In this document: one piece after another, positions 2,785 through 48,326 of the stretch
How the letters are laid out: each line of letters begins with the position of its first letter
How positions within the stretch are numbered: position 1 is the first letter of the stretch
NCBI GenBank assembly: GCA_037134875.1
Contig: JBAXLH010000006.1
Span: 1-48,326 of the forward strand
Origin: a bacterium
GTDB taxonomy: Bacteria > Patescibacteriota > Minisyncoccia > Phycocordibacterales > DATDWN01
Reading direction: 5' to 3'
DNA: 48,326 bases
Position numbers and translations under genes: made by a program
Notes under the pieces: generated by a model
Seen by the model: only the letters and a program-made list of their open reading frames with translations
What the model was told of the DNA's origin: nothing
Databases searched by the model: none

Positions 2785-2828
2785 AGATATATTATAACTC
2801 GTTTTTGTGTGATATAATAAAATTTCGT
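2785..2828. promoter_or_regulatory. Divergent back-to-back -10 promoters for comF and pilM
   Basis: TATAAT on the minus strand (2791-2796) 6 nt from the comF ATG; extended TGaTATAAT on the plus strand (2810-2818) 10 nt from the pilM ATG. Confidence 0.6.
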
Positions 2829-3974: not shown

Positions 3975-3975
3975 A

Positions 3976-4091
3976 TTTTCCAAAATTGACGCATTTCTGC
4001 GTTGCTCAAATTTTTTCCTCCCGCGCAGTATTTCTATACAGCTTGGTCGCAAAAAATTTTCGCGCCTTGAACTGCATTCAATTTTGAAAAA
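3976..4091. repeat. Imperfect nested palindrome (second element type); its 3' end is repeated at 4163-4190
   Basis: Outer arms ttttccaaaattga/tcaattttgaaaaa, inner aaatttttt/aaaaaattt, apical gtat-ttct-atac; 4063-4090 matches 4163-4190 at 25/28. Confidence 0.65.
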
Positions 4092-4217
4092 CTTAAGGTA
4101 CGGCTCCTCTCATTTTCAAATACTCAACATCGGATTTCATCCAAATTGTAAAAGTTTCAGTCCGCCTAGAACTACACTCAATTTTGAAAAATTTTTAAAT
4201 TCTAAATATTGGATCGA

Positions 4218-4332
4218 CTCAACTCACAGGAGTACACATTTTTGGGTCATTGCGAGCGCGACGGCGCGAACACGAGGAATTTTCTAGCAAGAAAATATCC
4301 GTGCCCAAAAATGTGTACTCCTGTGAGTTGAG
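4218..4332 (+). repeat. Hairpin element copy 1 (GACG/AGCA core, perfect 29-bp arms)
   Basis: Arm 4218-4246 is the exact reverse complement of 4304-4332; core cattgcgagcgcgacggcgcgaacacgaggaattttctagcaagaaaatatccgt. Confidence 0.92.
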
Positions 4333-4407
4333 GAGAAGATACTTAAAAAAGTTTTTGCACAGTTGCGATAGTATTTTATTTCACTGTGTATTATAATTGT
4401 ATTGATT

Positions 4408-5013: not shown

Positions 5014-5014
5014 T

Positions 5015-5569: not shown

Positions 5570-5570
5570 T

Positions 5571-5954
5571 ATGGGATCATCACTTCTCAAAAAACTCATA
5601 ATGTCTCTCATAATAGTCGGTGGACTTGGGTTTATTGCGTACAGCATCTTTTTTATGGCCCCAAGTGCTGATGTTTCGAGTGTTGCGTCGAGTACAGATT
5701 CAACAGGAGATGGAAATGATATTGTCTCACTCGCACAAAAGCTCCAAAATGTAAAAATAGATCAGACACTTTTTTCTTCTAATATTTTCAAATCTCTCAA
5801 GGACTACTCTGCTCCGGTAACTCCAGAGCCACAAGGTAGACCAAACCCATTTGCTTCGATAGGTAACGATGCAAATTTTGTGCCATCTACTCCTGTTACC
5901 AAGCCAGCTACGACTACACAGAAATCAGCTGGTGCAACGTCTGGAGTATTCTAG
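5571..5954 (+). CDS. Small membrane-anchored pilus accessory protein (PilP position, GRPNPF motif)
   Basis: One TM, Ser/Thr linker, PQGRPNPF resembling the PilP RxPF motif; lies after pilO. Confidence 0.6.
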   Translation: MGSSLLKKLIMSLIIVGGLGFIAYSIFFMAPSADVSSVASSTDSTGDGNDIVSLAQKLQNVKIDQTLFSSNIFKSLKDYSAPVTPEPQGRPNPFASIGNDANFVPSTPVTKPATTTQKSAGATSGVF

Positions 5955-5974
5955 GCGCAATTAATTGATTATTT

Positions 5975-7690: not shown

Positions 7691-7718
7691 TACTATATAT
7701 ACAGTAACAAAATTATTT

Positions 7719-8114
7719 ATGACCGAAGAAAATAAAAACGTAAAGATATTGCTTGTCGATGATGACAGATTTCTGCTCGATATGTATGTGCTCAAATTTA
7801 AATCGAACGGTATACATATAGACACGTGTGCAAGTAGCAAAGCGGCACTCGACAAAATTCATGAAAATGATACATACGATATTATTTTGCTTGATATCAT
7901 AATGCCAGGAATGGATGGAGTAGAGCTACTCAAAACAATCAGAGATGAAAAATTGGCACAAAAATCTACCATAATAATGCTCACAAATCAGGCCGATGAG
8001 ATTGAAAAAGTCAAAAAAATTGGTGTTGATGGTTTTATTATAAAAGCCACATCTATTCCGTCAGAAGTTGTTGCTTCGGTACTCGATATTCATCAAAAGA
8101 AAATTAATAAATAA
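7719..8114 (+). CDS. Single-domain response regulator (CheY-like receiver)
   Basis: ILLVDDD, LLDIIMPGMDG (phosphoacceptor Asp), MLTN, FIIK. Confidence 0.92.
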   Translation: MTEENKNVKILLVDDDRFLLDMYVLKFKSNGIHIDTCASSKAALDKIHENDTYDIILLDIIMPGMDGVELLKTIRDEKLAQKSTIIMLTNQADEIEKVKKIGVDGFIIKATSIPSEVVASVLDIHQKKINK

Positions 8115-8126
8115 TTTACATATACA

Positions 8127-9194
8127 ATGGCATCTGAATATGCAAAAAAATTTGAGGAACTTGTTGAACTAATGCTCAAAGAAGACGCATCAGACCTCCA
8201 TCTTTCTGAAGACCGCCAGCCAATGATACGTGTTGCTGGTTCTCTCATTCCGATGGTCAAATATCCAGCACTCACCAAGTCTGATATGAAAAGTATTTTG
8301 GAGCTTCTTCTTGATGATTCAAAAAAACAGATATTTGAGGATACAAAATCAGTTGACCTTGCATATAGTCACAACGAAAAAACTCGTTTCAGATGTAATG
8401 TATTTATGCGTATTGGCAAAATCAGTCTTGCAATGCGTCTCATACCGAGACAAATAAAAACTATCGAAGAACTCAGACTTCCTTCCATAATTGAGACATT
8501 TACCACAAAACAGCAGGGATTTTTCCTTGTAGTGGGTCCAACTGGTCATGGCAAAAGTACCACTCTTGCTTCTCTTATCGAAATGATTAACGAGAGACGT
8601 TTGGAACACATCATTACAATTGAAGATCCGATTGAATACCTCTTTGAATCAAAAAAGTCCGTGATTGATCAGCGAGAAATTTTACAGGACAGTCCAGACT
8701 TTCACAAAGCACTCAAGGATATGTTCCGAGAAGATGTGGATGTGCTGATGGTGGGAGAAATGCGAGATCCAGAAACAATGTCAACCGCCGTGACCGCTGC
8801 AGAGACCGGACACCTCGTGTTTTCAACACTGCACACCAACACAGCTGCACAGACTGTTTCGCGTATCATTGACTCGTTCTCTACAGAACAACAAGACCAG
8901 ATTCGCGTTCAACTCTCGGCCAGTCTTCTGGGTATTTTCTCCCAGCGTCTCGTACCACGAGTGTCTGGAGGACTCATCCCAGCTTGTGAGCTTCTCATCA
9001 ACAACACAGCTGTAGCAAACCTCATCCGAGAAAACCGCACACATGAACTCGAGTCAGTTATTGAGACCAGCTCGGATCAGGGAATGATAAACCTCAACAA
9101 ATACTTGGCGGAGCTCGTCAGTGCTGGAGAAATAACGATTGAAAACGCGTATTTGTATTCAAGTAATCCAAAAAGTTTGGAAAGGATGTTATAA
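8127..9194 (+). CDS. pilT: Type IV pilus retraction ATPase PilT
   Basis: ASDLHL, GPTGHGKST, TIEDPIE, VGEMRD, AETGHLVFSTLHT, AVANLIRE (PilT AIRNLIRE motif). Confidence 0.94.
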   Translation: MASEYAKKFEELVELMLKEDASDLHLSEDRQPMIRVAGSLIPMVKYPALTKSDMKSILELLLDDSKKQIFEDTKSVDLAYSHNEKTRFRCNVFMRIGKISLAMRLIPRQIKTIEELRLPSIIETFTTKQQGFFLVVGPTGHGKSTTLASLIEMINERRLEHIITIEDPIEYLFESKKSVIDQREILQDSPDFHKALKDMFREDVDVLMVGEMRDPETMSTAVTAAETGHLVFSTLHTNTAAQTVSRIIDSFSTEQQDQIRVQLSASLLGIFSQRLVPRVSGGLIPACELLINNTAVANLIRENRTHELESVIETSSDQGMINLNKYLAELVSAGEITIENAYLYSSNPKSLERML

Positions 9195-9201
9195 TAAATG
9201 T

Positions 9202-9320
9202 AGATTCCAGAGTAAAAAATTTAATTTCAAAAAACGGATAAATTTTTGCTAAAATTTTCCGGCGTGTAGTGCCGTCGCGCTCGCAATGTTTTTGAAATCA
9301 AATTTTTTACTCTGAAATCT
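9202..9320 (-). repeat. Hairpin element copy 2 (32-bp arms, 2 mismatches)
   Basis: Arms 9202-9233/9289-9320; minus-strand core cattgcgagcgcgacggcactacacgccggaaaattttagcaaaaatttatccgt. Confidence 0.9.
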
Positions 9321-9331
9321 GGCTATCTCAT

Positions 9332-10537
9332 ATGATTTTTACATACAAAGCAATTACAGCGACAGGGGAGAAGACAGAGGGCACAATCGATGCTGTGAGT
9401 GTTGATGTTGCAATCAATCAGCTCCAAAAGCGCAGTCTCATTATTTCCGAAATTCATGCACCAGATGAAAACAGATTTAGAATAGACACACTCTCATTTT
9501 TCAATCGTATTTCTGGCAAGGATGTGGTGATTCTCTCGCGTCAAATGGCGACACTTTTCCAGGCGCAGGTTTCGGCGTTGCGTATTTTCCGCCTCATCGG
9601 TGGTCAAGTCGACAGTCCAGCTCTCAAAAAGGTACTTTTGGAAATAGCTGATGATATCCAAGGTGGAAGCTCTATTTCCACAGCTCTTTCCAAACATCCC
9701 GACGCATTTTCTGACTTTTACGTAAATATGGTAAAGGCGGGAGAGGAGTCTGGAAAGCTCGATGAGACATTCAACTATCTCGCGGACTATTTGGACAGAA
9801 CATACGAAGTCACATCAAAAGCAAAAAATGCTCTTATTTATCCAGCATTCGTTATTACGACTTTCATAGGAGTTATGATTCTGATGCTCACTGTTATTAT
9901 TCCAAAAATCAGCCTGATGCTCAAAGACAGTGGTCAGGAAGTGCCGATTTATACCAAGGCCGTACTAGCACTCAGTAGTTTGTTTGTAAACTACGGTGTA
10001 TTTTTGGCGATTGGTATCGTAGTTGCTGGATTTTTGCTCTGGAGATTTTCTAGAACGACTGAAGGTGGGATGACTCTGGACAAGTTGAAACTCGATACTC
10101 CATACATAGGGGATTTGTACCGCAAACTCTACCTCTCGCGTATTGCAGACAATATGAACACTATGATTATCAGCGGTATTCCTATTTTGCGTGCTTTGGA
10201 AATCACATCGTCCGTCGTTGACAACAAAGTCTACAAAATGATTTTGGATAGAACTCTCACAGAGGTCAAAGGTGGTAGCTCTCTCTCGGCATCATTCGGT
10301 ATTTATCCAGAAATTCCAGGTATTATGGTACAAATGATAAAAGTGGGAGAGGAAACCGGAGAAGTGGGTGAAATTCTCAAAACTCTCGCAAAATTCTACC
10401 AACGAGAAGTTTCTGTGGCGGTGGATACTCTGGTGGGTCTTATTGAGCCGGTTATGATTGTCTCTCTCGGTCTTGGAGTGGGTGTTTTGCTGGCTGCGGT
10501 GCTTATGCCGATCTATAACATCGCCGGCGCCGGATAA
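9332..10537 (+). CDS. pilC: Type IV pilus inner-membrane platform protein PilC/GspF
   Basis: F.YKA...G....G, GEESGKLD, ALIYP, GEETG, LIEP motifs; three TMs. Confidence 0.95.
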   Translation: MIFTYKAITATGEKTEGTIDAVSVDVAINQLQKRSLIISEIHAPDENRFRIDTLSFFNRISGKDVVILSRQMATLFQAQVSALRIFRLIGGQVDSPALKKVLLEIADDIQGGSSISTALSKHPDAFSDFYVNMVKAGEESGKLDETFNYLADYLDRTYEVTSKAKNALIYPAFVITTFIGVMILMLTVIIPKISLMLKDSGQEVPIYTKAVLALSSLFVNYGVFLAIGIVVAGFLLWRFSRTTEGGMTLDKLKLDTPYIGDLYRKLYLSRIADNMNTMIISGIPILRALEITSSVVDNKVYKMILDRTLTEVKGGSSLSASFGIYPEIPGIMVQMIKVGEETGEVGEILKTLAKFYQREVSVAVDTLVGLIEPVMIVSLGLGVGVLLAAVLMPIYNIAGAG

Positions 10538-10589
10538 AAAACTTCCAAATTTGGCGAACTCCTTCGTTGAACTTCAAAAAACGTGGTTT

Positions 10590-10709
10590 GACAAAACAAC
10601 ACAACATATGTTTTCTGAAAACAGAATATTCGCCTGCTGGCGAATTTCTTCGTGCTCGACCCGTCGGTCTGCGCAATGTTTCAGAAAACATATGTTGTAT
10701 TGTTTTGTC
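10590..10709 (-). repeat. Hairpin element copy 3 (31-bp arms, 1 mismatch)
   Basis: Arms 10590-10620/10679-10709; minus-strand core cattgcgcagaccgacgggtcgagcacgaagaaattcgccagcaggcgaatattctgt. Confidence 0.9.
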
Positions 10710-10728
10710 TCACAGTTAAAACCTTTTC

Positions 10729-10915
10729 CCTCACCGGACACTACTTTTCGAATCATTCGCAGGATTTTGGCTAAAATGTAAATGTTTTTTCCTAGCCGAA
10801 AGCGTTTACCCCTGTGCAACAAGGGGCGACCAACGGGAGTCCGCGATAGGCAGGAAAAAACATTTTTACATTTTACAAAAGACGAGGACGATTCGAAGAG
10901 TAGTATCCGGTGAGG
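10729..10915. other. ~190-bp nested inverted-repeat structure (candidate structured RNA or MITE-like element)
   Basis: Outer arms cctcaccggacactacttttcgaatc/gattcgaagagtagtatccggtgagg (24/26); inner arms taaaatgtaaatgttttttcct/aggaaaaaacatttttacatttta; GC-rich branched apex. Confidence 0.75.
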
Positions 10916-10920
10916 AGGTT

Positions 10921-10997
10921 ACCCAGTAGTAGATTTTGGCATTGTTCGGATTAAAATCCGAACGTGCAAAGCACAATGCCAAAATTCACTACTGGGT
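10921..10997. other. 77-bp hairpin with 25-bp arms and a two-hairpin apex
   Basis: acccagtagtagattttggcattgt/acaatgccaaaattcactactgggt (23/25); apex ttcggatt-aa-aatccgaa and gtgc-aaa-gcac. Confidence 0.75.
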
Positions 10998-11154
10998 TTA
11001 TCCACATCTCCACTTTTCACAAAAATCTCTATTGCCGTATAATATAGATATTCGTTTTAACAAAAACGGTTTGTGTCGAAAATGGGCGCAAACAGGTCGA
11101 GGTAAAAAATATTTAGTTATTAGTTTTAATAAAGTATTTAACAAAATATAAAAT

Positions 11155-11652
11155 ATGACAAAAAAGTTTAACAAAGGTTTTACACTTATTGAATTGCTCG
11201 TCGTTATTGCAATTATCGGTATTCTTTCATCAGTTGTTTTGGCATCGCTTAACACAGCACGAACAAAAGGTGCAAATGCAGCTATCAAGGGAGACTTGAA
11301 TGGTATTCGAGCTCAGGCAGAGTTGTTCTATGATAATCAGAGTCCTCAATCATATGGAACAGCATACGCTGCAGCAGCTTGTGCATCAGCAGGTGCAGGA
11401 ACAATATTTAACGATGCTAACATAAAGCAGGCTATTGCTCATGCTGTTACTCAAAATGGTGGAACAGATGGAACATGTTATTCAGACGCAACCCACTACG
11501 CTATTGCAGTCCTTCAAAAAGGAGGTGGAGCATGGTGTATAGACAACTCAGGTGTCTCACGAGAGAAAACATCAGGAGGTACAGCTTACTCAGCAGCTAC
11601 TCTTGGTGCTTCTCCAGCAGCAATTACTTCAGGTACGATTGCATGTAACTAA
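11155..11652 (+). CDS. pilA: Type IV major pilin (PilA-like)
   Basis: Class III signal KG|FTLIELLVVIAIIGILSSVVLASL, four Cys, Ala/Gly-rich; own terminator. Confidence 0.9.
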   Translation: MTKKFNKGFTLIELLVVIAIIGILSSVVLASLNTARTKGANAAIKGDLNGIRAQAELFYDNQSPQSYGTAYAAAACASAGAGTIFNDANIKQAIAHAVTQNGGTDGTCYSDATHYAIAVLQKGGGAWCIDNSGVSREKTSGGTAYSAATLGASPAAITSGTIACN

Positions 11653-11667
11653 TCACGAATTAGTTTC

Positions 11668-11705
11668 AAAACAAAAAGCCAGCCGAGAGGTTGGTTTTTT
11701 GTTTT
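11668..11705 (+). terminator. Intrinsic (possibly bidirectional) terminator after the major pilin
   Basis: aaaacaaaaagccagcc-gaga-ggttggttttttgtttt. Confidence 0.8.
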
Positions 11706-11751
11706 ACACAAGTGGGGCGTTTATTTGTTTTTGTTTTCACTGTATAATGTA

Positions 11752-12612
11752 ATGACTATGGATATACTATCTTTTATATACGTTTTCATTTTAGGGACTT
11801 TAATAGGTAGCTTTATAAACGTCGTGGCTTTGCGATACAAGACAGGCCTTTCGGCCACGTCTGGCAGATCGATTTGTTTCAACTGTGGTACACCACTCAA
11901 ATGGTACGAGCTCATTCCGCTCTTCAGCTTTCTTTTCCTGCGTGGCAGATGCCGAACGTGCAAGAGCAAGCTCTCGTGGCAGTATCCGATCATTGAATTT
12001 TTTACCGGTGTGATTTTTGTCGGCATCGTTCTCCGTCAGCTGTACTACTGGCCAGTTTATAGTGCGTTTGATTACGGTATATTCCTTTCAGTAGGTTTTT
12101 GTCTCTACTATGCCTTTGTATTCAGTCTACTTTTGGTCATTGTGCTCTATGATATTCGTCATACGATTATTCCAGACATAATGGCATACACGTTTATTGT
12201 GCTGAGTGTCATAAAGCTCGCCCTATTCTTTTTCCTCAAAGATTTTGTTTTGACTCGAATGGATCTCTTTGATCTCTCGGCGCCATTTGTGCTTTTTATA
12301 CCATTTGCGCTCCTCTGGCTACTGTCGCGGGGCAGGTGGATGGGGTTCGGCGATGCCAAGCTGGTGTTCGGTATTGGAGCACTCCTCGGTTTTGTCTCCG
12401 GTATCTCGGCGGTTATTCTGGCATTCTGGATCGGCGCTCTCTGGAGTATTTTCCTCATCATCCGTAGCAAGTTTTCTGACGAGTCTGGTACAAAAATCGG
12501 CCTACACTCCGAAGTTCCATTCGCACCATTTCTCATTGCCGGCACAATCATCGTCTTTTTCAGCCACATTGATGTAATGGGCCTCGGTACGCTTTTGAAT
12601 TCAATGTTTTAA
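11752..12612 (+). CDS. pilD: Prepilin peptidase PilD/ComC (A24)
   Basis: GSFINV, RSICFNC...CRTC Zn motif, YD and GFGDAKL catalytic Asp residues, VPFAPFL. Confidence 0.94.
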
Positions 12613-12629
12613 AACAAAATTAAGAATGA

Positions 12630-12750
12630 TGATTTACCTCGCACACATATGTTTTTCAAAAACATTGCGAGCTCGACGGAGCGAACACGAGGAATTTTTC
12701 AGCAGAAAAATATCCGTTTTTTGAAAAACATATGTGTGTGAGGTAAGTCA
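12630..12750 (+). repeat. Hairpin element copy 4 (33-bp arms, 2 G-U positions), followed by a 3'-end remnant at 12758-12779
   Basis: Arms 12630-12662/12718-12750; core cattgcgagctcgacggagcgaacacgaggaatttttcagcagaaaaatatccgt. Confidence 0.92.
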
Positions 12751-12812
12751 GATAAGGAAAATTTATCCGTTTTTTGAAAAGTGTGTAATTACAAAATAAG
12801 TCCTGTGATAAA

Positions 12813-13427
12813 ATGATCACTTTCTACAAAAAAAGAAATAAAGGTTTTACACTCATAGAGCTGATGGTTTCTATTAGTGTCGCTGTGGCGATTATGATGG
12901 TGGTTCTTTTCAGCTATTCAAAATTTGATAACGATCTCGCGCTCGTAGGTGCGAGTCAGGAGGTAGCTGTGGCGATTCGCGAAGCGCAGGTGTATGGACT
13001 GAGTGTCAAAGAGCGCACGGCTGGTGGAGGAAACTTCAACATAGGTTACGGAATTTATTTTCATCCGAGTGATCCGACGAACTACTATGTATTTGCTGAC
13101 GAGGATAATGATGGAAAATACGATGGAGATAGTACGTGTAGTACAGCGAGTGAATGCATTGAAAAGGGGACATTGCGAAATGGTATCAAAATCTCGTCTG
13201 TCTGTGGTGTGACTGGAGGAACCACGAGGTGTTATCCATCGTCATGTATCGATGGGATGGCAGTTACATTTCTGAGGCCAAATCCTGATGCAAGTGTAAA
13301 TCTCATAAACGGCGGAGGAAATTTTTGTGGTTCTACGGAGGATACCGGCCAGATCATACTGTCGTCACCCCAAGGAAAAACACTGACAATATCAATTTCA
13401 AAAGCCGGACAGATTTCAGTGCAATAA
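12813..13427 (+). CDS. Minor pilin (FimT/FimU/GspH-like)
   Basis: KG|FTLIELMVSI class III signal; IREAQ..G; C-terminal ISKAGQI. Confidence 0.85.
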   Translation: MITFYKKRNKGFTLIELMVSISVAVAIMMVVLFSYSKFDNDLALVGASQEVAVAIREAQVYGLSVKERTAGGGNFNIGYGIYFHPSDPTNYYVFADEDNDGKYDGDSTCSTASECIEKGTLRNGIKISSVCGVTGGTTRCYPSSCIDGMAVTFLRPNPDASVNLINGGGNFCGSTEDTGQIILSSPQGKTLTISISKAGQISVQ

Positions 13428-13428
13428 A

Positions 13429-13986
13429 ATGGTAAAAACAGATTTTAAAAAAAATAAAGGGTTTACACTTGTCGAGCTGATGGTCTCTATATCGCTTTTT
13501 AGTATTGTGATGCTTATTAGTATGGGCTCCATAATGACAGTCTTGGATTCAAACAGAAAATCTCAGTCCCTCCGTGCTGTGATGGACAACCTCAACTTTA
13601 CACTAGAAAGTATGACGAGAAGTATTCGTTTCGGAGAAAAATATCATTGTGGAACGAGTGGTACACTGACAAATCCAAGTGATTGTCCGTCTGGTGATAC
13701 TAGTCTGACCCTTCTCGCACCACTGCCTAGTGGTACTACTGGTCTTGTCACATACAGGCTTTCAGCCGGAAAAATAGTCAAAACTGTTGGTGGGGTTGAT
13801 ATGGATCTCACGTCACTCGATGTGACGATTGATAGGCTAACATTTTATGTCCTCGGCTCTGCATCCAGTGACACGTATCAGCCAAGGGTGCTTATTGTTG
13901 TAAAGGGCCACTCGGGTACAAAAACATCAACGCAGACATCATTTACTCTGGAGACCACAATATCGCAAAGAAAATTTGATTATTAA
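13429..13986 (+). CDS. Minor pilin (PilW/GspJ-like)
   Basis: KG|FTLVELMVSI; LESMTRSIR. Confidence 0.85.
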   Translation: MVKTDFKKNKGFTLVELMVSISLFSIVMLISMGSIMTVLDSNRKSQSLRAVMDNLNFTLESMTRSIRFGEKYHCGTSGTLTNPSDCPSGDTSLTLLAPLPSGTTGLVTYRLSAGKIVKTVGGVDMDLTSLDVTIDRLTFYVLGSASSDTYQPRVLIVVKGHSGTKTSTQTSFTLETTISQRKFDY

Positions 13987-13987
13987 T

Positions 13988-14557
13988 ATGAAGATTCACT
14001 ATCAAAAAAGAAATACAGGGTTTACACTCATTGAAACACTTGTTGCGATTAGTATTTTGTCTATTTCTATTTTGGGTACATTTACTGCTGTACAGACGAG
14101 TCTCCAGTCGTCAGGATATGCAAAGGATCAGGTCACGGCATTTTATCTCGCTCAAGAGTCTATCGAATATTTGAGAAACAAACGAGACGAAAATGCGCTG
14201 AACAGCCTCAATTCTCTCGCTTCTGGTGGATCTGCTGTCGGTTGGCTTACTGGTATTTCTGCTGTGGCAACAGACCCATGTTATTTTGGAAAAGTATGTA
14301 CAGTGGATTCTCCGGGAGCTACTCTCTCGGCGTGTAGCGGTGCTCTCGGTAGTTGCCCTGTACTCAACCAAGACTCGGCAACAGGACTGTTTGGATACAA
14401 TGTTACGTGGACCCCGACTGATTTCAAGAGGGAAATTCAATTACAAACTGTCGCTGGCAATGCAAACGAAATTGTCGCGATTATTACTGTGAGCTGGCAG
14501 AGTGGTGCATTTTCAAAAACATTCCAAATCAGAGAGTCACTTTTCAATAACAGATAA
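13988..14557 (+). CDS. Minor pilin (PilV/GspI-like)
   Basis: TG|FTLIETLVAI; AFYLAQESIEYLR; ITVSW. Confidence 0.85.
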   Translation: MKIHYQKRNTGFTLIETLVAISILSISILGTFTAVQTSLQSSGYAKDQVTAFYLAQESIEYLRNKRDENALNSLNSLASGGSAVGWLTGISAVATDPCYFGKVCTVDSPGATLSACSGALGSCPVLNQDSATGLFGYNVTWTPTDFKREIQLQTVAGNANEIVAIITVSWQSGAFSKTFQIRESLFNNR

Positions 14558-14558
14558 T

Positions 14559-17058
<2,500 letters not shown>

Positions 17059-17109
17059 TTGACTAATTTTTCCCTTTGTGTTTATATACCCTAGGAATGA
17101 AAGGACTTA

Positions 17110-17691
17110 ATGTTTGCAAAAAGGGCGGTATATAATAAAGGGACAGAGTTCATCGACGGCTACGATTTCGAAAGATTTTGTGCCGGATTCGATGCGTCCT
17201 CTGTCGGTCTCAAATTGTATGGGACCGATGTAAAAAGATTTTCTTTCGAAGAGGCCCTTGTGAATTCCGTCCATTCGGCAGTCAGCCGAGGATGTACTCA
17301 CATAGGCCTGCGAGAAAGTGGGGGATTTTTTTATCGGGTGTATTGCGAAGTCAGGCAACAGCTCCCGAAACCCCTTCGTCGCAAGCTCCGGCTTGTGACC
17401 ACGCTGGGGACAGCCCTCGACTTTTTTTATGGAAGCGATTTTGTCTTCCTACTTAATAAGAGTTTCGTCTTGGTTGACGCGACTCTCCGAACGTTTGATG
17501 AGGGCAAACAGTCGGTGCGGGGCAACTATTCGTACCGCATCTTCACTCCTTATCAGACAGATCAGAAGGCCGTTGTTGCCTTGGCCAGAACAATCGCCCG
17601 CGACTTGCGGGACGGGGAGGAAAGTATACAAGATGAAGTCTTTTCACAAATAAAGGGATTGGTGTACAGCACCAAACCCAACAGTTCTTGA
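17110..17691 (+). CDS. Hypothetical protein (193 aa)
   Basis: Long ORF, upstream aagga SD-like site, GC above flanks, followed by a terminator. Confidence 0.6.
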   Translation: MFAKRAVYNKGTEFIDGYDFERFCAGFDASSVGLKLYGTDVKRFSFEEALVNSVHSAVSRGCTHIGLRESGGFFYRVYCEVRQQLPKPLRRKLRLVTTLGTALDFFYGSDFVFLLNKSFVLVDATLRTFDEGKQSVRGNYSYRIFTPYQTDQKAVVALARTIARDLRDGEESIQDEVFSQIKGLVYSTKPNSS

Positions 17692-17693
17692 TG

Positions 17694-17718
17694 CTCGCAG
17701 ATGTCCTCTGCGAGTTTT
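17694..17718 (+). terminator. Intrinsic terminator
   Basis: ctcgcaga-tgtcc-tctgcgag-tttt immediately after the stop codon. Confidence 0.7.
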
Positions 17719-17844
17719 AATTTTGCAAAAAATATGTTTAGTGGATGACTAGCATATTATTGTACATTTTTGAAAACAGAATATTCATTTAGAGTGCCCC
17801 CTACCTCATATTATTTTGCTTTCTGGAAACGGATAAATGTTTTC

Positions 17845-17966
17845 AATGAACCACACAATAGTATATATTTTTGAAAACAGAATATTCGCCTGCTGGCGAA
17901 TTTCTTCGTGCTCGGCCCGTCAGCCTGCACAATGTTTCAAAAATATATACTATTGTGTGATTCATT
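17845..17966 (-). repeat. Hairpin element copy 5 (32-bp arms, 1 mismatch), with remnants at 17766-17786 and 17826-17838
   Basis: Arms 17845-17876/17935-17966; core nearly identical to copy 3, with ggct-GACG-ggcc. Confidence 0.9.
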
Positions 17967-18061
17967 TCCATATGATTTTTTTCGGCTCTGTTAAAAAACG
18001 GCTTAAAATATGGATAAAATACAGGTGCTGGGTGGGGAAGTGAGTGGAAATGGAAAAGTAC

Positions 18062-18089
18062 TTGACAAATAAAACAAAGGGTGTATAAT
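18062..18089 (+). promoter_or_regulatory. Consensus sigma70 promoter
   Basis: TTGACA-N16-TATAAT. Confidence 0.8.
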
Positions 18090-18159
18090 GTTTATTAGAG
18101 TGGTTGTCATACCACTACTTCAAATAAGACTCCCCGTTGCGGGAGTACAGGAGAAAAAA

Positions 18160-19098
18160 ATGAGTTTCTTGAATCTGCTGAACGTGGGCATCATCAAGGC
18201 CCAGGACGCCCTCAAAGGGGATACCAGCGAGAAGGTCGCGGCGATCCGCAAGGCCAATCAGGAGAAAGCGGCTATCGAGGCTGCCAACATCCTGAAGCAG
18301 GTCACGGCGGGCACCACCCGCCTGGCCGACGTGAAGACGTCGACCGAGACGATTATGCGCGCGTTGTTCGGGCTCGTTGCCGCCAACGTGGCGGCCGTCT
18401 TGGCCTTCGTGGCCAAATTCCCCAACAGGTTGTACGTGGGGAACATCCCGGAGGTCGTGAAGACCACCGGGAAACGCGACGAGCTCGGCGCCATCTACCT
18501 CGGGCGCGTGCTGTCGCCGGAATTCGGACCCACGTGGGTCCGTCCGGACTGGCTCGAGGAAGGGGAAGATGACGCGAACGAGTTTTGGTTCGCGGTCAGC
18601 TCGCTGTTCGCCGCCATGCTCGGCGCAGGAGCCGAGCCACGGCAGTTCCGCTTCGTGGCGGGTGCGCTGGAAACGGCGTACGCCGATCGGCTCGCTTCGG
18701 CGACCGACCAGAGACTCTGGAAGCTCCTGGAGGCGGTGCGGAACACCGGGACGTACCACGTCCCCGGCGACAACCCGCACCAGCAACACGCCCCGGCCGC
18801 CAACGGCAAGGGCCACGGCCACAACAACGGCCAGCAACAGCGCCGTCGGGATGTGCCGAACGTTCCGGAGCGGCATTTCGCTCCGGAATGCTCGCGGCCC
18901 CCGGCCTCCGAGGCCAGCGCCTCCGAAGTGGAGGCCTACCGCGCCGGGCTCAACGCGGCGCACGCGGCCAAGGCTCCGCTCGCCGAGCACCTGGCGACCA
19001 AGGGTGTGACGGTCAACGTGACCGTCGCGCCCCCGCCGAAGAAGGTCCGGAAGCCCCGCTCCAAGAAGGAGACGGCGACCGAAACCGCGGCGCAGTAG
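18160..19098 (+). CDS. GC-rich ORFan (312 aa) with low-complexity, basic C-terminus
   Basis: AGGAG SD at 18149-18153, ATG 18160, G/C-ending codons in this frame, own promoter and terminator. Confidence 0.75.
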   Translation: MSFLNLLNVGIIKAQDALKGDTSEKVAAIRKANQEKAAIEAANILKQVTAGTTRLADVKTSTETIMRALFGLVAANVAAVLAFVAKFPNRLYVGNIPEVVKTTGKRDELGAIYLGRVLSPEFGPTWVRPDWLEEGEDDANEFWFAVSSLFAAMLGAGAEPRQFRFVAGALETAYADRLASATDQRLWKLLEAVRNTGTYHVPGDNPHQQHAPAANGKGHGHNNGQQQRRRDVPNVPERHFAPECSRPPASEASASEVEAYRAGLNAAHAAKAPLAEHLATKGVTVNVTVAPPPKKVRKPRSKKETATETAAQ

Positions 19099-19160
19099 TA
19101 CTTTTAGCGGGTTGAGACCCCCAAAAAAATCTCATCCTCAGGTTACCAACCTCAGGCCCC

Positions 19161-19189
19161 GGCCCCACGCAATGTGGGGCCTTTTCTTT
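19161..19189 (+). terminator. Intrinsic terminator
   Basis: ggccccac-gcaat-gtggggcc-ttttcttt. Confidence 0.85.
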
Positions 19190-19200
19190 ACCTAAAATAT

Positions 19201-19228
19201 TTGACAGGTGTTTTTTTAGGTATATAAT
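19201..19228 (+). promoter_or_regulatory. Consensus sigma70 promoter with no downstream sense gene
   Basis: TTGACA-N16-TATAAT; -35 bracketed by acctaaaa/ttttaggt inverted repeat. Confidence 0.65.
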
Positions 19229-19245
19229 GATGTGTATCACTATGA

Positions 19246-19290
19246 GAAAGACCCTTGTGCAGATTCGTCTGCATTGGGGGCTTTTTCTTT
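19246..19290. terminator. Hairpin with TTCG loop, likely bidirectional terminator at the NYN gene 3' end
   Basis: gaaagacccttgtgcaga-ttcg-tctgcattgggggctttttc. Confidence 0.6.
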
Positions 19291-19772
19291 TATATCCTCT
19301 TTGAAAATTTATGATAATGGTCGTTCAAGAATGTTATTTCAACATTCTTGTTTCTTAAAAGAAAAGAACATCTATTTGTATCAGGAGCTACGATTCGGTT
19401 TAATGATTTATTTTCTTGCAGAAACTCCACAAGACATCCAAAATCTCCATCTCCGGTCACTAATATGCAAGAATCAAAAGCTTTTGTATAAAAATCAGAA
19501 GTAGCTTTTAGTACCAACTCTGCATCACAATTTCCTTTAATTTTTTCCCCGACTGATACTGTTTGTTTGAAAACTAGAATAAATCCTGATTTCTGCAAAT
19601 GTTCATAAAATTTGCCTCTTTCTGGGACAAGACCAATAAAAAGATATACAAATTGAGGATTATATTTTTGTCTGAGCCATCCACGAAATTTTTTATAATC
19701 AATTTCAAATCCCAGTTCTTTGGCTCCCCGATAGAGGTTATTTCCATCAATATAAATATTGATTTTAGACAT
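19290..19772 (-). CDS. NYN domain (LabA/DUF88, PIN-fold) nuclease
   Basis: IYIDGNNL, KGNCDAEL, LVTGDGDF acidic motifs; start at ATG 19772 (MSKINIY). Confidence 0.9.
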   Translation of the reverse strand: MSKINIYIDGNNLYRGAKELGFEIDYKKFRGWLRQKYNPQFVYLFIGLVPERGKFYEHLQKSGFILVFKQTVSVGEKIKGNCDAELVLKATSDFYTKAFDSCILVTGDGDFGCLVEFLQENKSLNRIVAPDTNRCSFLLRNKNVEITFLNDHYHKFSKRI

Positions 19773-19838
19773 ACTAAAGATAATATCATATAATTTGAAA
19801 ATTTTGAAAAAAAAATTTATACTGTATAATACTTTTAT

Positions 19839-20129
19839 ATGATCAAACAACGAAATACATTTTTGCTCGGCATTTTCATTTTGCTCATCTGGGTGTTTTT
19901 CGGTATTCCGACATCGTGGAAAATATTTTTCACTATTCTCTCCGGTCTCTACCTCATATTTATTTCCGTCAAAATTTCTTTCCCTAAAAAAGGAATCGTA
20001 AAGCGTGCACGCAAAAAAGAAAAGACAACTCCAGTTTTTACCGAGAATTCTCCAATAGAAACAGAGACAAAAAGCATTGATGACAGTCAACACAGAGGCG
20101 ACTCAAATGGATTTGGCTCTGTACAATAG
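19839..20129 (+). CDS. Small two-TM membrane protein
   Basis: Two hydrophobic segments with FFGIPTSWK loop and basic tail; TATAAT 8 nt upstream. Confidence 0.75.
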   Translation: MIKQRNTFLLGIFILLIWVFFGIPTSWKIFFTILSGLYLIFISVKISFPKKGIVKRARKKEKTTPVFTENSPIETETKSIDDSQHRGDSNGFGSVQ

Positions 20130-20134
20130 TACAA

Positions 20135-21331
20135 ATGAAAAACACACTTGCTCAGTACAAACATATACTCTTTGTATGTGTTGGAATTATTTCTGCCATT
20201 ATTTTTTTCTTTGTATTGCCAAAAATTTTCACAGGACACTATGTACTCACAGGTAGTGCTGTGGCAACGCTTACTCAAAGTGCAGATGTGAAAAAAGATG
20301 TAACGCCGGTGTTTGTGCCGACGTACATAGCGACTCCTGTTCCAGTCAAAGGAATATATATGACGAGTTGGACTGCCGGTACGCCGTCTTTACGCGGAGC
20401 ACTGGTTAAACTCATTGATGACACAGAGCTCAACACAGTGGTCATTGATATAAAAGATTACTCGGGCAAAATTGTTTTTCCGATTGAAAATACGGACTTG
20501 AAAAAATTTGGCTCAGAGGAAGTACGTGTATCGGATATGCGAGACTTCGTAGAGTCTCTGCACAAAAAAGGCATCTATGTCATCGGACGTATCGCTGTGT
20601 TTCAGGATGCATATTTTGTAAAATATAAACCAGATTTGGCTGTCAAAAATAAAGCAGGGACGGCAGTGTGGAAAGACCGAAAGGGGATTTCGTGGATTGA
20701 TCCCGGCTCGCAGGAGTATTGGGATTATATTGTGCTCCTCGCACAGGAGACACGGAAGGTTGGGTTTGATGAAATAAATTTTGATTATATTCGTTTTCCG
20801 TCTGATGGAAATATGCAGGATATTTCGTATCCGTTTAGTAGTACGACGCCGAAAACAGTGGTAATGAAAAACTTTTTTGCCTATGTTACCGAACATCTGA
20901 AAAAAGGTGTAGCGAGTTCGTCTGCGCCAGAACTCAAGATTTCCGCCGACCTTTTTGGAATGGTGACGACGGCACAGGATGATATGGGTATCGGGCAGTA
21001 TCTAGAGAACGCTCTGCCATATTTTGACTACATAATGCCAATGGTGTATCCGTCACATTATCCGCCAACGTTTATTGGTTACAAAAATCCAGAAGCCTAT
21101 CCATACGAGGTAGTCAAATACGCAATGTCCGAGGCGGTCAAACGGGCAAATCTCGCAAGTACGAGTCCGGCGAAACTCCGTCCATGGCTCCAAGATTTTG
21201 GTTTGAAAATGACGTACGGCTCAGCCGAAGTCCGTGCACAGATCAAGGCAACGAATGACGTCGGACTCGACTCGTGGATTCTCTGGTCCGCTTCCAACAA
21301 ATATACGAAAGGCGCGTTGGATGCGAAATAA
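20135..21331 (+). CDS. Membrane-anchored putative glycoside hydrolase (DUF4015 TIM-barrel type)
   Basis: VKGIYMT, NTVVIDIKD, RIAVFQD, FDEINFDYIRFP, PMVYPSHY, RPWLQDF. Confidence 0.85.
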   Translation: MKNTLAQYKHILFVCVGIISAIIFFFVLPKIFTGHYVLTGSAVATLTQSADVKKDVTPVFVPTYIATPVPVKGIYMTSWTAGTPSLRGALVKLIDDTELNTVVIDIKDYSGKIVFPIENTDLKKFGSEEVRVSDMRDFVESLHKKGIYVIGRIAVFQDAYFVKYKPDLAVKNKAGTAVWKDRKGISWIDPGSQEYWDYIVLLAQETRKVGFDEINFDYIRFPSDGNMQDISYPFSSTTPKTVVMKNFFAYVTEHLKKGVASSSAPELKISADLFGMVTTAQDDMGIGQYLENALPYFDYIMPMVYPSHYPPTFIGYKNPEAYPYEVVKYAMSEAVKRANLASTSPAKLRPWLQDFGLKMTYGSAEVRAQIKATNDVGLDSWILWSASNKYTKGALDAK

Positions 21332-21344
21332 TAAGTTGAGATAG

Positions 21345-21469
21345 TTTCAAAACTCGTTGAAGCAGATTCTTTTTGGAGACTTCGGAGCGCGACGGCGCGA
21401 GATTGAGCGAAAGTCTAGCAAGACTTATCGCGTGCTCCAAAAAGGATGTGCTGAATAAGAGTTTTGAAA
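21345..21469 (+). repeat. Hairpin element copy 6 (divergent core, arms with internal loop)
   Basis: Arms tttcaaaactc..agcagattctttttggag/ctccaaaaaggatgtgct..gagttttgaaa; core gcgc-GACG-gcgc and gcga-aagtct-AGCA-agactt-A-tcgc. Confidence 0.85.
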
Positions 21470-21479
21470 TTAAGAACAA

Positions 21480-21623
21480 TGATTTGAATTCAGAAACTTT
21501 TATTCGACATATGTTTTTTGGAGTACGGATATTTGCCTGCTGGCAAATTCCTCAAGTCTCGGCTACCCGCCTGCGAAGCCTCCAAAAAACATATGTTCTC
21601 AACAAGTTTCTGAATTCAAATTA
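21480..21623 (-). repeat. Hairpin element copy 7 (divergent, adjacent and inverted to copy 6)
   Basis: Arms atttgaattcagaaactt..acatatgttttttggag/ctccaaaaaacatatgt..aagtttctgaattcaaat; minus-strand core gga-atttgcc-AGCA-ggcaaat-A-tccgt. Confidence 0.85.
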
Positions 21624-21663
21624 AATTTTTATTTCCTTTTCATTTATTGTATAATACACACAT

Positions 21664-23589
21664 ATGAGTGACTCCGCTGATGTAACATATTTCGCAGAGA
21701 CTGACGCGAGAAATAAAAAAGTAAAATTTGGCGTGAAGTCAAAGGACAGACTGCGACACGTGTACGTGATCGGAAAGACTGGTGTTGGAAAGTCTACACT
21801 TCTCGAAAATATGGCAATTCAGGATATCCAGAAAGGCGAGGGTATGGCTTTTATTGATCCACATGGAGGTACAGCAGAAAAACTTCTCGAGTATGTGCCA
21901 GAACACCGCATCAAAGATGTGCTCTATTTTGCGCCGTTTGATATGGAGTATCCGGTTTCGTTCAATGTTTTGCAGGACATTGGTCCGGACAAGAGACACC
22001 TCGTGGTTAACGGTCTTATGTCTACGTTCGAAAAGATTTGGGCGGATGCGTGGTCAGCCAGAATGTCATACATTTTGCAATACACAATTATTGCGCTCCT
22101 CGAATATCCCGGTGCGACGCTCCTCAGTATCAACAGAATGCTCTCAGACAAGGATTACCGCAAGAAAATTGTTGATAACATTACTGATCCGTCGTGCAAA
22201 TCTTTTTGGGTGGATGAGTTTGGAAAGTATACCGAGCGATTTGCTGCCGAGGCAACACCGGCAATCCAAAACAAAGTCGGACAATTTACATCAAACCCGC
22301 TCGTGCGAAATCTCATCGGTCAGCCGGACTCGTCTTTTGATATTCGCAAAATGATGGACGAGAAAAAGATAATGATTATCAACTTGTCCAAAGGGCGTGT
22401 GGGTGAGGGGAATGCAAACCTCATTGGTGCAATGCTCATCACAAAAATCTATCTCGCTGCTATGTCACGTGCGGACAAAAGTGATGCCGAGCTCGCAAAA
22501 CTTCCAAATTTTTATTTGTACGTTGACGAGTTTCAGTCATTTGCCAACAAATCATTCGCGGACATCCTCTCCGAAGCACGAAAATACAAACTCTCTCTCA
22601 ATATTGCACACCAATACATCGAACAAATGGAGGAGGAGGTTCGTGATGCAGTGTTTGGTAACGTCGGTACGATGGTGACGTTCCGAGTGGGTGCATTTGA
22701 CGCCGAGGTTTTGGAAAAAGAATTTGCTCCGACGTTTACCGCAGAGGATTTGGTCAATCTCGGATTTGCACAGATTTATCTCAAACTTATGATAGACGGC
22801 GTTTCTTCATCGCCATTTTCCGCCCGCACACTTGCACCGATCGCCAAGCCAGAGATTCGATACAAAGATCAAATCATACAGAGCTCCCGAGAACAATTCT
22901 CCAAACCTCGTGCTGAGGTAGAAGAAAATATTCGCAAATGGCACGAGCAGGGTATTCAAAAAGATGCAAAACCTGCGTCAAACAAAGATATTTCTCATAC
23001 ACACGAAGAACAAACTGAGGTGCGGAATGATAATTTTTCTCGACGAGAACACAAAAGACCAGAAACACAAAATCAAGTTTCTCCTATTCCACAAAACAAT
23101 AGACCAATTGCACAGAATGAACCACCAAAAGTTGACCCAAACAAGATTGCTTTTATGAAAGCAGCGGAAATGCTCCGCGAAAAAGAAGTCAAAGAAATAC
23201 CAAAGGTGCATGAAAAACCACAGACAGCTTCTCTTTCTAATTTGGCACACGAACAAGATAGAAAAAAAGTTCCAACCAAAGAAAATATATCGAGTCTCAA
23301 GGATGCCTTGTCTCAGGTAATTAATAACAAACCAAAAGGGTTTCAGGAAAAGCCAAGAACGGAAATTCCTCCGAGACCGAGACCGCAAGAGACACCAAAG
23401 GTAGAACAAAAATCCGAATATATTAAACAAGAAAATTCTCCAATCACAAAACCTCATCATACTGAGCCGAGAAAGGAAGAAAGAAAACCGGAGCAACATG
23501 AGAAAAAAGAGACAGAAACCAATCCATCAAAAAATGAAGTGCCAGAGGATGTTCTCCGCAAACTGCTCACAATGGAAGATACACAATAA
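21664..23589 (+). CDS. TraD/VirD4 (T4CP)/HerA-like P-loop ATPase with long low-complexity C-terminal tail
   Basis: RHVYVIGKTGVGKS, FIDPHG, LYVDEFQ, SEARKY, AHQYIEQ; last ~210 aa rich in E/K/P/Q. Confidence 0.85.
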   Translation: MSDSADVTYFAETDARNKKVKFGVKSKDRLRHVYVIGKTGVGKSTLLENMAIQDIQKGEGMAFIDPHGGTAEKLLEYVPEHRIKDVLYFAPFDMEYPVSFNVLQDIGPDKRHLVVNGLMSTFEKIWADAWSARMSYILQYTIIALLEYPGATLLSINRMLSDKDYRKKIVDNITDPSCKSFWVDEFGKYTERFAAEATPAIQNKVGQFTSNPLVRNLIGQPDSSFDIRKMMDEKKIMIINLSKGRVGEGNANLIGAMLITKIYLAAMSRADKSDAELAKLPNFYLYVDEFQSFANKSFADILSEARKYKLSLNIAHQYIEQMEEEVRDAVFGNVGTMVTFRVGAFDAEVLEKEFAPTFTAEDLVNLGFAQIYLKLMIDGVSSSPFSARTLAPIAKPEIRYKDQIIQSSREQFSKPRAEVEENIRKWHEQGIQKDAKPASNKDISHTHEEQTEVRNDNFSRREHKRPETQNQVSPIPQNNRPIAQNEPPKVDPNKIAFMKAAEMLREKEVKEIPKVHEKPQTASLSNLAHEQDRKKVPTKENISSLKDALSQVINNKPKGFQEKPRTEIPPRPRPQETPKVEQKSEYIKQENSPITKPHHTEPRKEERKPEQHEKKETETNPSKNEVPEDVLRKLLTMEDTQ

Positions 23590-23593
23590 CTTT

Positions 23594-24757
23594 ATGAACA
23601 AAAAAAATATTCTGATTTTTTCTACGGCGTACTATCCATTTGTTGCAGGAGCCGAAGTTGCAATAAAAGAAATTACTGATCGACTCACTACCGATTATGA
23701 ATTTGATCTTATTACCGCAAAAATGGCCAAAAATCTGGCTGATTTTGAGCGAGTGGGAAATGTAAATGTGTACAGAATAGGAAGTGGCCGACCGATGCTC
23801 GATAAACTCCTCTTGCCTTTTCGAGGTGCGTTGCAAGTGCTGAAATTGCAAAAAGAAAAAAAATACCACTGTTTTTGGGCAGTAATGGTTACATTCGGTA
23901 GTGGTGCTGCCTACATTGCAAACATTTTAAGTGTATTAAATAACAGAGGAAAGGTTCCGATTGTGTTAAATTTGCAAGAAGGCGACTCCGAAGAACATTT
24001 GAAATTCAAGTGGGGAGGGCTCATTGCTTTTTCATGGTGGATTGCTCTTAAAAATACAGATTTTCTGACTGTGCTCAGTTCATTTTTGCTCCAGAGAGCA
24101 AAAAGTTTTTGTTATAATGGAAAAGCGTTGATTGTTCCAAACGGTGTTGATACGGCACATTTCTCTCATCTTTTTTCCGAAGAAGAAAAAAAAGTTGTTG
24201 CAGAGCGACTTCAAAAAAAAGAGCACGATATTTTTTTGGTTACAGCATCACGGCTCGTAAAGAAAAACGCGGTGGATGATATTATATCAGCGCTTGTGTA
24301 CTTGCCAAGAAATATTTTTTTGATTGTGATCGGAAAAGGGGAAGAGGGATGTAGACTTCAGGCACAGGCGGTCAGACTCGGGGTTGATAAAAGAGTGAAA
24401 TTTTTGGGTTTTATTCCTCATGACGAAATGCCGAAATATTTTTCAGTTTGTGATATATTTGTGAGACCGAGTCGATCAGAAGGTTTTGGTAATTCATTTA
24501 TTGAGGCGATGGCTGCGAGACTACCGGTCATTGCTACACCGGTTGGTGGAATTACAGACTTTTTGGACGACAAGGAGACTGGAATTTTTTGTTCACCAAA
24601 TAATCCAAAAAGCTTGGCAGAGACGGTTATGTTTTTGCTCGAGAATGAAAGTTTGGAAGCAAAAATTGTCGGTGGAGCATACGAGAGGGTTATTTCAACA
24701 TACGACTGGTCTCTCATTGCTCAAAAAATGAAAAATGAAGTATTTGAAAAAATATAA
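23594..24757 (+). CDS. Glycosyltransferase family 4 (GT-B)
   Basis: GAE, IVPNGVD, PSRSEGFGNSFIEAMA (E-x7-E). Confidence 0.92.
   Translation: MNKKNILIFSTAYYPFVAGAEVAIKEITDRLTTDYEFDLITAKMAKNLADFERVGNVNVYRIGSGRPMLDKLLLPFRGALQVLKLQKEKKYHCFWAVMVTFGSGAAYIANILSVLNNRGKVPIVLNLQEGDSEEHLKFKWGGLIAFSWWIALKNTDFLTVLSSFLLQRAKSFCYNGKALIVPNGVDTAHFSHLFSEEEKKVVAERLQKKEHDIFLVTASRLVKKNAVDDIISALVYLPRNIFLIVIGKGEEGCRLQAQAVRLGVDKRVKFLGFIPHDEMPKYFSVCDIFVRPSRSEGFGNSFIEAMAARLPVIATPVGGITDFLDDKETGIFCSPNNPKSLAETVMFLLENESLEAKIVGGAYERVISTYDWSLIAQKMKNEVFEKI

Positions 24758-47639: not shown

Positions 47640-48326
<687 letters not shown>

Follow-up and report, generated by a model that had tools for sequence, protein, structure and literature searches.

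The DNA analyzed here, referred to as the window, is a 48,326-nt stretch corresponding to contig C6 of a 771-kb genome of the Patescibacteria, which is assembled in 18 contigs and rated 100% complete. It contains a type IV pilus operon (2805-14557) made of pilM, a T2SS-M-like gene, pilB, pilT, pilC, a pilin gene, a prepilin peptidase gene and three minor pilin genes, and the spacers of this operon host four copies of a long hairpin repeat, hereafter the element. The window holds eight copies of the element as well as isolated 3′ halves. They are given below with, for the copies, the position of the conserved AGCA loop and the score against a covariance model of the element (R1, see below).

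4214..4336, plus strand: copy 1, subfamily A, AGCA at 4286, between a pilM-like gene and the next pilus gene, 91.5 bits
9190..9332, minus strand: copy 2, a subfamily A variant, AGCA at 9250, occupying the entire pilT-pilC spacer, 77.3 bits
10590..10709, minus strand: copy 3, subfamily B, AGCA at 10638, directly after pilC, 79.6 bits
12630..12750, plus strand: copy 4, subfamily A, AGCA at 12701, after the prepilin peptidase gene, 96.3 bits (the top model match)
12758..12779, plus strand: fragment, 3′ half of the element, closely following copy 4 and co-oriented with it
17753..17839, minus strand: two 3′-half fragments, one B-like (~17753-17786) and one A-like (~17807-17839), downstream of copy 5 in the same orientation
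17845..17966, minus strand: copy 5, subfamily B, AGCA at 17894, 78.4 bits
21342..21472, plus strand: copy 6, subfamily C, AGCA at 21417, 87.4 bits
21482..21621, minus strand: copy 7, subfamily C′, AGCA at 21541, 79.0 bits
24765..24881, plus strand: copy 8, subfamily A, AGCA at 24834, between two glycosyltransferase genes, 92.1 bits

Copies 6 and 7 lie on opposite strands, 10 nt apart. The fragment at 12758..12779 holds the 3′ strand of hairpin 2, the bulged A, TCC, GT and the inner 3′ arm, while of the pair downstream of copy 5, the B-like fragment comes from the match listing and the A-like one was identified by eye. These three isolated 3′ halves near copies 4 and 5 may be the product of nested insertion or of partial deletion. 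Within copy 2, positions 9261-9268, which belong to hairpin 1 and the junction, show small indels and substitutions between contigs of different lake metagenome runs.

The elements are mostly 113-190 nt long, with one copy delimited at just 88 nt. From the outside to the inside, the fold consists of an outer stem, often an internal loop, an inner stem ending in a T-run paired with an A-run, and a three-way junction. Arm 1 of the junction (hairpin 1) is formed by a 3-bp helix, tandem G.A pairs and a 4-bp GC helix, mostly capped by GACG; arm 2 (hairpin 2) by a helix of 3-4 bp, a bulged A and a 7-bp helix capped by AGCA. In copy 1, a perfect outer stem of 29-30 bp surrounds a head of 57 nt, and the sense strand folds at -70.8 kcal/mol (z -13.0). 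Copy 6 displays an outer stem, the conserved internal loop (GTTGA / GAATAA) and an inner stem.

A first-pass annotation of this DNA had listed the hairpin 2 stems, with their AGCA loops and bulged A, and these are borne out in 8/8 window copies. Written as lower stem, upper stem, loop, upper stem, bulge and lower stem, hairpin 2 reads gga-attttct-AGCA-agaaaat-A-tcc in copy 1, gga-aaatttt-AGCA-aaaattt-A-tcc in copies 2 and 8, agaa-attcgcc-AGCA-ggcgaat-A-ttct in copies 3 and 5 (upper stem ATTCGCC/GGCGAAT), gga-atttttc-AGCA-gaaaaat-A-tcc in copy 4, gcga-aagtct-AGCA-agactt-A-tcgc in copy 6 and gga-atttgcc-AGCA-ggcaaat-A-tcc in copy 7. Hairpin 1 was also read correctly by the annotation for copies 1, 3, 4, 5, 6 and 8, with for instance GACC/GGTC in copy 3, GCTC/GAGC in copy 4 and GGCT/GGCC, including one G-U pair, in copy 5. 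It omitted copy 2, where hairpin 1 contains a C.A mismatch (GCGC/GCAC) and the junction is altered, and copy 7, where hairpin 1 is GGC-GGGTA-GCC and lacks the GACG loop. The range that it had assigned to the feature, 10621-21435, encloses copies 3-6 and leaves copies 1, 2, 7 and 8 outside. What it overlooked is that these cores are the heads of 113-190-nt hairpins that behave like a mobile repeat family.

The genome was scanned with a script that combined a 6-bp stem around AGCA with a junction word. Five of the 49 places found were removed, one being false and four being variant forms (C3 47131, C2 111677, C1 72469 and C1 68108), leaving 44 copies in which AGCA is present in 44/44 by construction. 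The covariance model R1, built from these copies, recovers all 44 and yields six weaker matches in the genome, and subfamilies A, B, C, C′ and D can be distinguished by their junction words and stems. A loose pattern made of GACG, a gap and AGCA is not rare (27 matches vs 20.4 expected). The longer hairpin-1 motif is rare, with 30 matches vs 13.4 expected, a count reached in 0/100 shuffles. Matches to R1, ~570 in total, are found in 48/61 genomes, own genome included, at 1 to 46 per genome: the element is present in 36/36 other genomes of the family and in 12/24 other families of the order. In an even sample of the phylum, 2/150 genomes had a match, under stricter filters that recovered only 29 of the ~50 own copies; heads of other sequence may exist elsewhere in the phylum.

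The fold is clearly kept in shape by selection. In alignment A1, a plain MAFFT alignment of the 44 own copies made without fitting to a structure, 92.1% of cells in the three helices are paired vs 67.0% after shuffling (0/500 shuffles reach the observed value), and sliding the partner by 1-3 columns lowers pairing to at most 60.5%. Changes on both sides are seen in 21/22 pairs, and in hairpin 2 the six pairs nearest the loop form in 44/44 copies, with 2-4 pair types each. Alignment A3, in which 92 copies drawn from 29 other genomes were fitted to the model and which is therefore biased towards the structure, has 95.6% of cells paired vs 72.2% shuffled, and at most 63.6% when slid. Altogether, 136 copies display 44 distinct 10-bp hairpin-2 stems and 37 distinct hairpin-1 stems, many of the unpaired cells in this count coming from the misaligned GGGTA variant and from 6-bp stems. 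The compensatory covariation claimed by the first-pass annotation thus holds in both sets, as does its proposal that selection acts on a folded three-way junction, given that the stems vary freely while the unpaired letters are held.

The junction contains, in addition, a third helix between its two strands: the triplet immediately 5′ of the G(N)A ahead of hairpin 1 pairs with the triplet immediately 3′ of the GA behind this hairpin. The pairings seen are UGC/GCA, AGC/GCU, CUC/GAG, CGC/GCG and UUC/GAA. All 3/3 pairs form in 25/53 distinct junction combinations, a number reached by 0/1000 shuffles (mean 12.0, maximum 19); the commonest junction types form merely 2/3. A kink-turn beside hairpin 1 was considered and excluded, as just 2-4 letters separate both helices on the 5′ strand.

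In A3, the element is most constant at its unpaired letters. The hairpin 2 loop (columns 62-65) is A in 100%, G in 98%, C in 89% and A in 100% of copies, the bulged A (column 77) is kept in 88%, and columns 17 (C, 100%), 49 (A, 100%), 81 (G, 99%) and 82 (T, 97%) are close to fixed. The AGCA loop and bulged A had been described as invariant: they are nearly fixed, but AGUA and AACA loops occur, and in other genomes the bulged A reaches the value just given. The GACG loop is looser in other genomes (G 98%, A 69%, C 75%, G 92%). Around the junction, the letters A-C-U, N-G-A and G-U-G are held, whereas paired positions drift with compensation. Many copies also carry an internal loop ~18-20 bp outward of the junction, with GTYGA on the 5′ side and a GAGAAA-like sequence on the 3′ side; strict patterns detect both halves in 27/88 copies of relatives, mostly at a fixed distance from the head.

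We then compared the two strands of the outer stems. In the 44 own copies, interior G-U pairs number 56 in the sense strand vs 11 in the antisense strand and 1x1 A.C mismatches 6 vs 38, and the sense fold is the more stable one in 40/44. The bias is weaker and of the same sign in 89 copies from 29 other genomes, with 92 vs 52 G-U pairs, 15 vs 56 A.C mismatches and a more stable sense fold in 76/89. Where the flanking genes are co-directional, 16 copies have the same orientation as these genes and 14 the opposite one, and the G-U bias is found in co-oriented (28 vs 6) as well as in opposed copies (16 vs 2). Because copies face both ways relative to genes, a transcription-tied mutation bias is ruled out as the source of the strand bias. 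Neighboring copies alternate in orientation within a few kb, which argues against a replication-linked bias, the direction of replication (e.g., from GC skew) being unmeasured. As the strand bias is independent of host genes, the selected form would be a single strand of the element's own polarity, either single-stranded DNA or RNA. Taken together, the held letters, the third helix and the constraint on one strand point to recognition of a folded single strand.

Comparison with relatives shows that the whole hairpin, arms included, was inserted. The pilT-pilC spacer is 137 nt long in this genome, all of it element, while it measures 1-22 nt in 21/27 relatives and 35-223 nt in the remaining 6/27, some of which carry other palindromes. 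Among 30 pilC loci, strong R1 matches occur only in this genome, two others having weak ones (32.8 and 24 bits). Four copies lie in frame inside open reading frames of 271-703 residues, which encode RNase R-like, UvrD, MnmA-like and DNA-alkylation-repair-like proteins (names read from the translations, except UvrD), and 2/4 of these in-gene copies are antisense to their host gene. The copy in UvrD adds ~45-49 residues that are absent from 12/12 aligned orthologues: the loop between two helicase motifs has 57 residues vs ~8-19 in the 12 orthologues, and residues ~78-131 of the query are skipped by every orthologous match among those listed. In a genome of another genus (G020), a copy is located between the stop codon of a gene and an intrinsic terminator, and G024, whose gene is 79% identical, has the terminator without the copy. 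Since the G020 copy lies upstream of a separate terminator, it is within the transcription unit and is not itself the terminator. A regulatory role had been one of the options put forward by the first-pass annotation; for regulation of neighboring genes, there is no support in the near-even orientation of copies (16 vs 14) or in the relatives that lack copies at the same sites.

Within the genome, the outer arms have matches solely in the arms of closely related copies. Those of subfamily B are related near the head and diverge outwards, and in our reading the differences between the UvrD and MnmA copies consist of double changes at paired positions. We infer that the arms change fast and that their complementarity is restored either by selection or by hairpin-templated correction. 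An origin of the arms from spacer-like or phage-derived sequence was dropped after viral contigs, searched with two arms and with a degenerate subfamily A head pattern, returned 0 exact matches.

Based on these results, we think it probable, with some reserve, that the element is a mobile but non-autonomous palindromic repeat, comparable in kind to REP, ERIC or RPE, and that a factor which it does not encode binds its head in single-stranded form. According to this model, the element would be gained and lost between and inside genes within one order of Patescibacteria. It would spread through, or act as, a single-stranded form of fixed polarity, whose head would be bound sequence-specifically by a protein encoded elsewhere; copies that keep the fold and the contact letters would be those that persist or multiply. 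The element itself encodes no protein.

Several observations weigh against a mobile repeat of this kind. Identical heads can carry unrelated outer arms, which simple copy-and-paste fails to explain unless the arms change fast and in concert. Inspection by eye of the sequence flanking the 44 copies showed no target-site duplication or target motif, although the ends of the copies, set by the fold, are fuzzy and no exact empty site is available. Four lake metagenome DNA runs revealed no insertion polymorphism over 4100-24099, but contigs stop at elements and none of their joints bypasses an element precisely. Variant heads are found just downstream of tRNA genes, in tRNA orientation, in 5/5 cases, a count that includes one head scored by script as opposite to the nearest tRNA and re-read by eye against a second tRNA ~200 nt upstream. 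Finally, no mobilizing enzyme was found among the Y1/RAYT, reverse transcriptase, TnpB, rve, DDE_Tnp_1 and IS110-like candidates. Over the 61 genomes, the Y1 gene and the element occur together in 27, the element alone in 21, the Y1 gene alone in 7 and neither in 6; RVT_1 matches are present in 22/48 genomes with the element and 3/13 without; and an IS110-like gene is present in just 5/61.

The candidates in this genome are as follows. It has a single Y1_Tnp gene (217 residues; G000 C7:7860-8513, locus L001 1294-1947), whose best NCBIfam match is the REP-associated tyrosine transposase (RAYT), at 68.9 bits for a cut-off of 80. This gene is flanked by three copies of a 19-nt GACGG-centered palindrome that occurs nowhere else in the genome and differs from the element. 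Near-complete genomes G003, G015, G034 and G055 have 14-29 model matches and no Y1 match, and others, e.g., G016, G026, G028 and G029, have 7-13 model matches and neither a Y1 nor a reverse transcriptase match. Of 11 Y1 genes of relatives, six are without a strong palindrome within ~1.5 kb and five have unrelated ones, none resembling the palindrome found here. TnpB zinc ribbon, rve and DDE_Tnp_1 have no match in this genome, nor does Y2_Tnp, for which the control also matched nowhere; two tyrosine recombinases are present. Integron attC sites were excluded from sequence alone, with copies on both strands and no R′/R″ cores, IntI not having been searched for.

Two further genes were noted during these searches. 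One reverse transcriptase gene lies at C10:19432-20040 (RVT_1, 86.5 bits) in an open reading frame of 331 residues. A divergent IS110-like protein of 513 residues is encoded at C1:36226-37764 (locus L230), 630 nt from an element copy; it matches Transposase_20 at 26.1 bits, and its DEDD domain is weak.

We weighed four other explanations. The element might be a host-useful structured RNA module, such as a stabilizing 3′ structure or a site at which an RNA-handling protein binds or carries out processing, that acts within transcripts and was copied around secondarily. Functional RNAs often show features seen here, namely G-U pairs tolerated on one strand, tandem G.A pairs and an internal loop resembling loop E; the unpaired letters are retained across almost all copies and not just in a few "master" copies; and the G020 copy lies within a transcription unit, upstream of the gene's own terminator. 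The heads next to tRNA genes go in the same direction: these variants, identified from weak model matches and a scan for bulged-A hairpins, consist of a GA-flanked GC mini-hairpin and a bulged-A stem capped by AGCA or GACG, and in two places the 5′ part of a tRNA gene is duplicated ahead of the variant head. However, the tRNA sample is small, and tRNA genes also attract integrating elements. The strand asymmetry is equally strong in gene-opposed copies, so that read-through host transcripts are not the selected form, and no promoter or terminator of the element's own was seen. Other genera do not have copies at these sites, and of the four copies within coding sequence, two run antisense to the gene. 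We regard such a module as possible but rather unlikely. The arms themselves suggest another explanation, namely neutral palindromes kept complementary by hairpin-templated repair or by template switching during replication, with no selection on the fold. Outer arms of up to 33 bp that are often perfect, and unrelated among copies with the same head, fit concerted correction more easily than compensation one pair at a time, and the genome has other hairpin repeat families with different heads. Such correction would nevertheless remove the asymmetry of the junction along with the bulged A, the terminal loops and the internal loop, although conservation is highest at these letters; under it the two strands should not differ, yet G-U pairs exceed A.C mismatches several-fold on one strand; and the junction strands covary even though they lie outside any palindrome. 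These features make neutrality very unlikely.

A bulged-base hairpin is the sort of single-stranded DNA signal that Y1 transposases read, as in the structures of IS608 and RAYT, and REP, BIME and REPIN elements with RAYT transposases are found in enterobacteria and pseudomonads. In a REP/REPIN-like system, the single RAYT-like Y1 (HUH) transposase of the genome could bind the small hairpins in single-stranded DNA and mobilize the elements. The element resembles REPs and REPINs in being a short, non-coding, multi-copy palindrome, mostly intergenic and in both orientations, and the Y1 gene, closest to REP-associated tyrosine transposases, is flanked by a GACGG-centered palindrome, as are RAYT genes. 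REPs, however, are simple hairpins of 20-40 nt with a GTAG-type 5′ tetranucleotide, whereas the element has 113-190 nt and places a 57-nt three-way junction atop a 25-45-bp stem. The flanking palindrome, all three copies of which are next to the Y1 gene, is not the element; the element neither flanks a RAYT-like gene nor co-occurs with one across genomes, as the counts above indicate; element-rich near-complete genomes lack Y1; and the Y1 genes of relatives share no flanking palindrome. Mobilization by this enzyme is therefore hard to credit. The head could instead be a new small ribozyme or DNA catalyst that processes its own strand. Like the hammerhead core, it has a three-way junction, conserved unpaired junction letters (~20 in the element) and tandem G.A pairs extending one arm, and, as with several ribozyme families, the copies are numerous, free in orientation and tied to a mobile repeat. 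Its junction letters (ACU..GA / GA..NGA / GUG) depart from the hammerhead consensus (CUGANGA / GAAA / UH). Rfam 15, including hammerhead, twister, pistol and hatchet, gave only a 16S rRNA match over the window at gathering score, and over copy 1 at E up to 10 only two microRNA-precursor families (0.15 and 2.3), well below their gathering scores. The catalytic role that had been suggested at first thus met with no supporting sign, and we consider it most improbable.

If the element is, as we favor, a non-autonomous mobile repeat, its nearest known counterparts would seem to be REP/REPIN, ERIC and Correia elements and above all the RPE elements. Compared by description only, RPEs are likewise palindromes of 100-150 bp in small genomes, located in intergenic regions and in frame inside conserved protein genes, and we know of no mobilizing enzyme for them. 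They differ in host phylum, and RPEs are not known to have a covarying three-way-junction head, a strand-specific G-U bias or a conserved internal loop. ERIC/IRU and the Neisseria Correia elements (NEMIS) are imperfect palindromes of ~100-150 bp that lie inside transcription units and form long RNA hairpins in either orientation; no transposase is known for them. The G020 copy, with a stop codon on one side and the terminator of the gene on the other, resembles these elements. ERIC and Correia elements are conserved in sequence over their full length, while conservation here is limited to the head and a few segments of the stem, and Correia elements are bounded by defined inverted ends with a TA duplication, while no duplication was seen here. 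The subterminal hairpins of IS200/IS605 and of PATEs are similar in being strand-specific single-stranded DNA hairpins with an extrahelical base and one active strand. Unlike with IS200/IS605, there is no TnpB-type gene in this genome and Y1 genes do not track the element; and neighboring copies alternate in orientation along the window, giving no sign of the replication-direction bias of that family, with replication direction unmeasured here.

Other classes fit less well. Unlike in a miniature inverted-repeat transposable element, the outermost arms vary among copies, and no rve or DDE_Tnp_1 match is present in the genome. Unlike in an intrinsic terminator, the T-run lies in the 5′ arm, paired with the A-run, and orientation relative to genes is nearly even (16 same, 14 opposite). 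Unlike for a repeat borne by a retroelement, reverse transcriptase is missing from many genomes with the element (RVT_1 in 22/48). The element appears to stand apart from the systems with which we compared it through the covariation in its three-way-junction head, its fixed contact letters, a constraint specific to one strand and its conserved internal loop. Full-text literature on palindromic, MITE or three-way-junction repeats of Patescibacteria and the Candidate Phyla Radiation, judged from result listings, did not reveal such elements.

Patescibacteria genomes are among the smallest and most streamlined in bacteria, and ~6 kb of these 771 kb consist of one hairpin repeat, present even in frame inside essential genes. 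To our knowledge, how small palindromic repeats spread is an unanswered question for RPE, ERIC and Correia elements alike. The element family offers sharper handles on it, since its defined fold, defined active strand and ~20 fixed contact letters are usable as bait or as targets for probing. Elements also break assemblies and produce false open reading frames, and the covariance model would improve annotation. A more far-reaching idea is that the head is the working part of a new single-strand mobility or processing system, in the form of a small self-processing nucleic acid or of a docking site for a core host enzyme. We find this doubtful; if it were true, it would explain the spread of the element through genomes of 0.5-0.9 Mb without a matching transposase, and the tRNA-linked variant heads would be an ancestral or host-side use of the same motif.

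In addition to the element, the genome carries several families built as a long stem plus a head. Two such repeats with other heads directly follow copy 3: one at 10715-10925 (-95.3 kcal/mol), with five other related copies in the genome, and one at 10915-11005, with two other copies. A group I intron (70.2 bits) is located at C1:50363-50639 (locus L205 464-740), within an apparent tRNA gene; upstream of it, a duplicated tRNA 5′ part is joined to a variant head, and the same joint is found beside another tRNA at the end of contig C5. The 16S rRNA gene lies at 47640-48326, where the 5′ 731 model positions are covered before the window ends.

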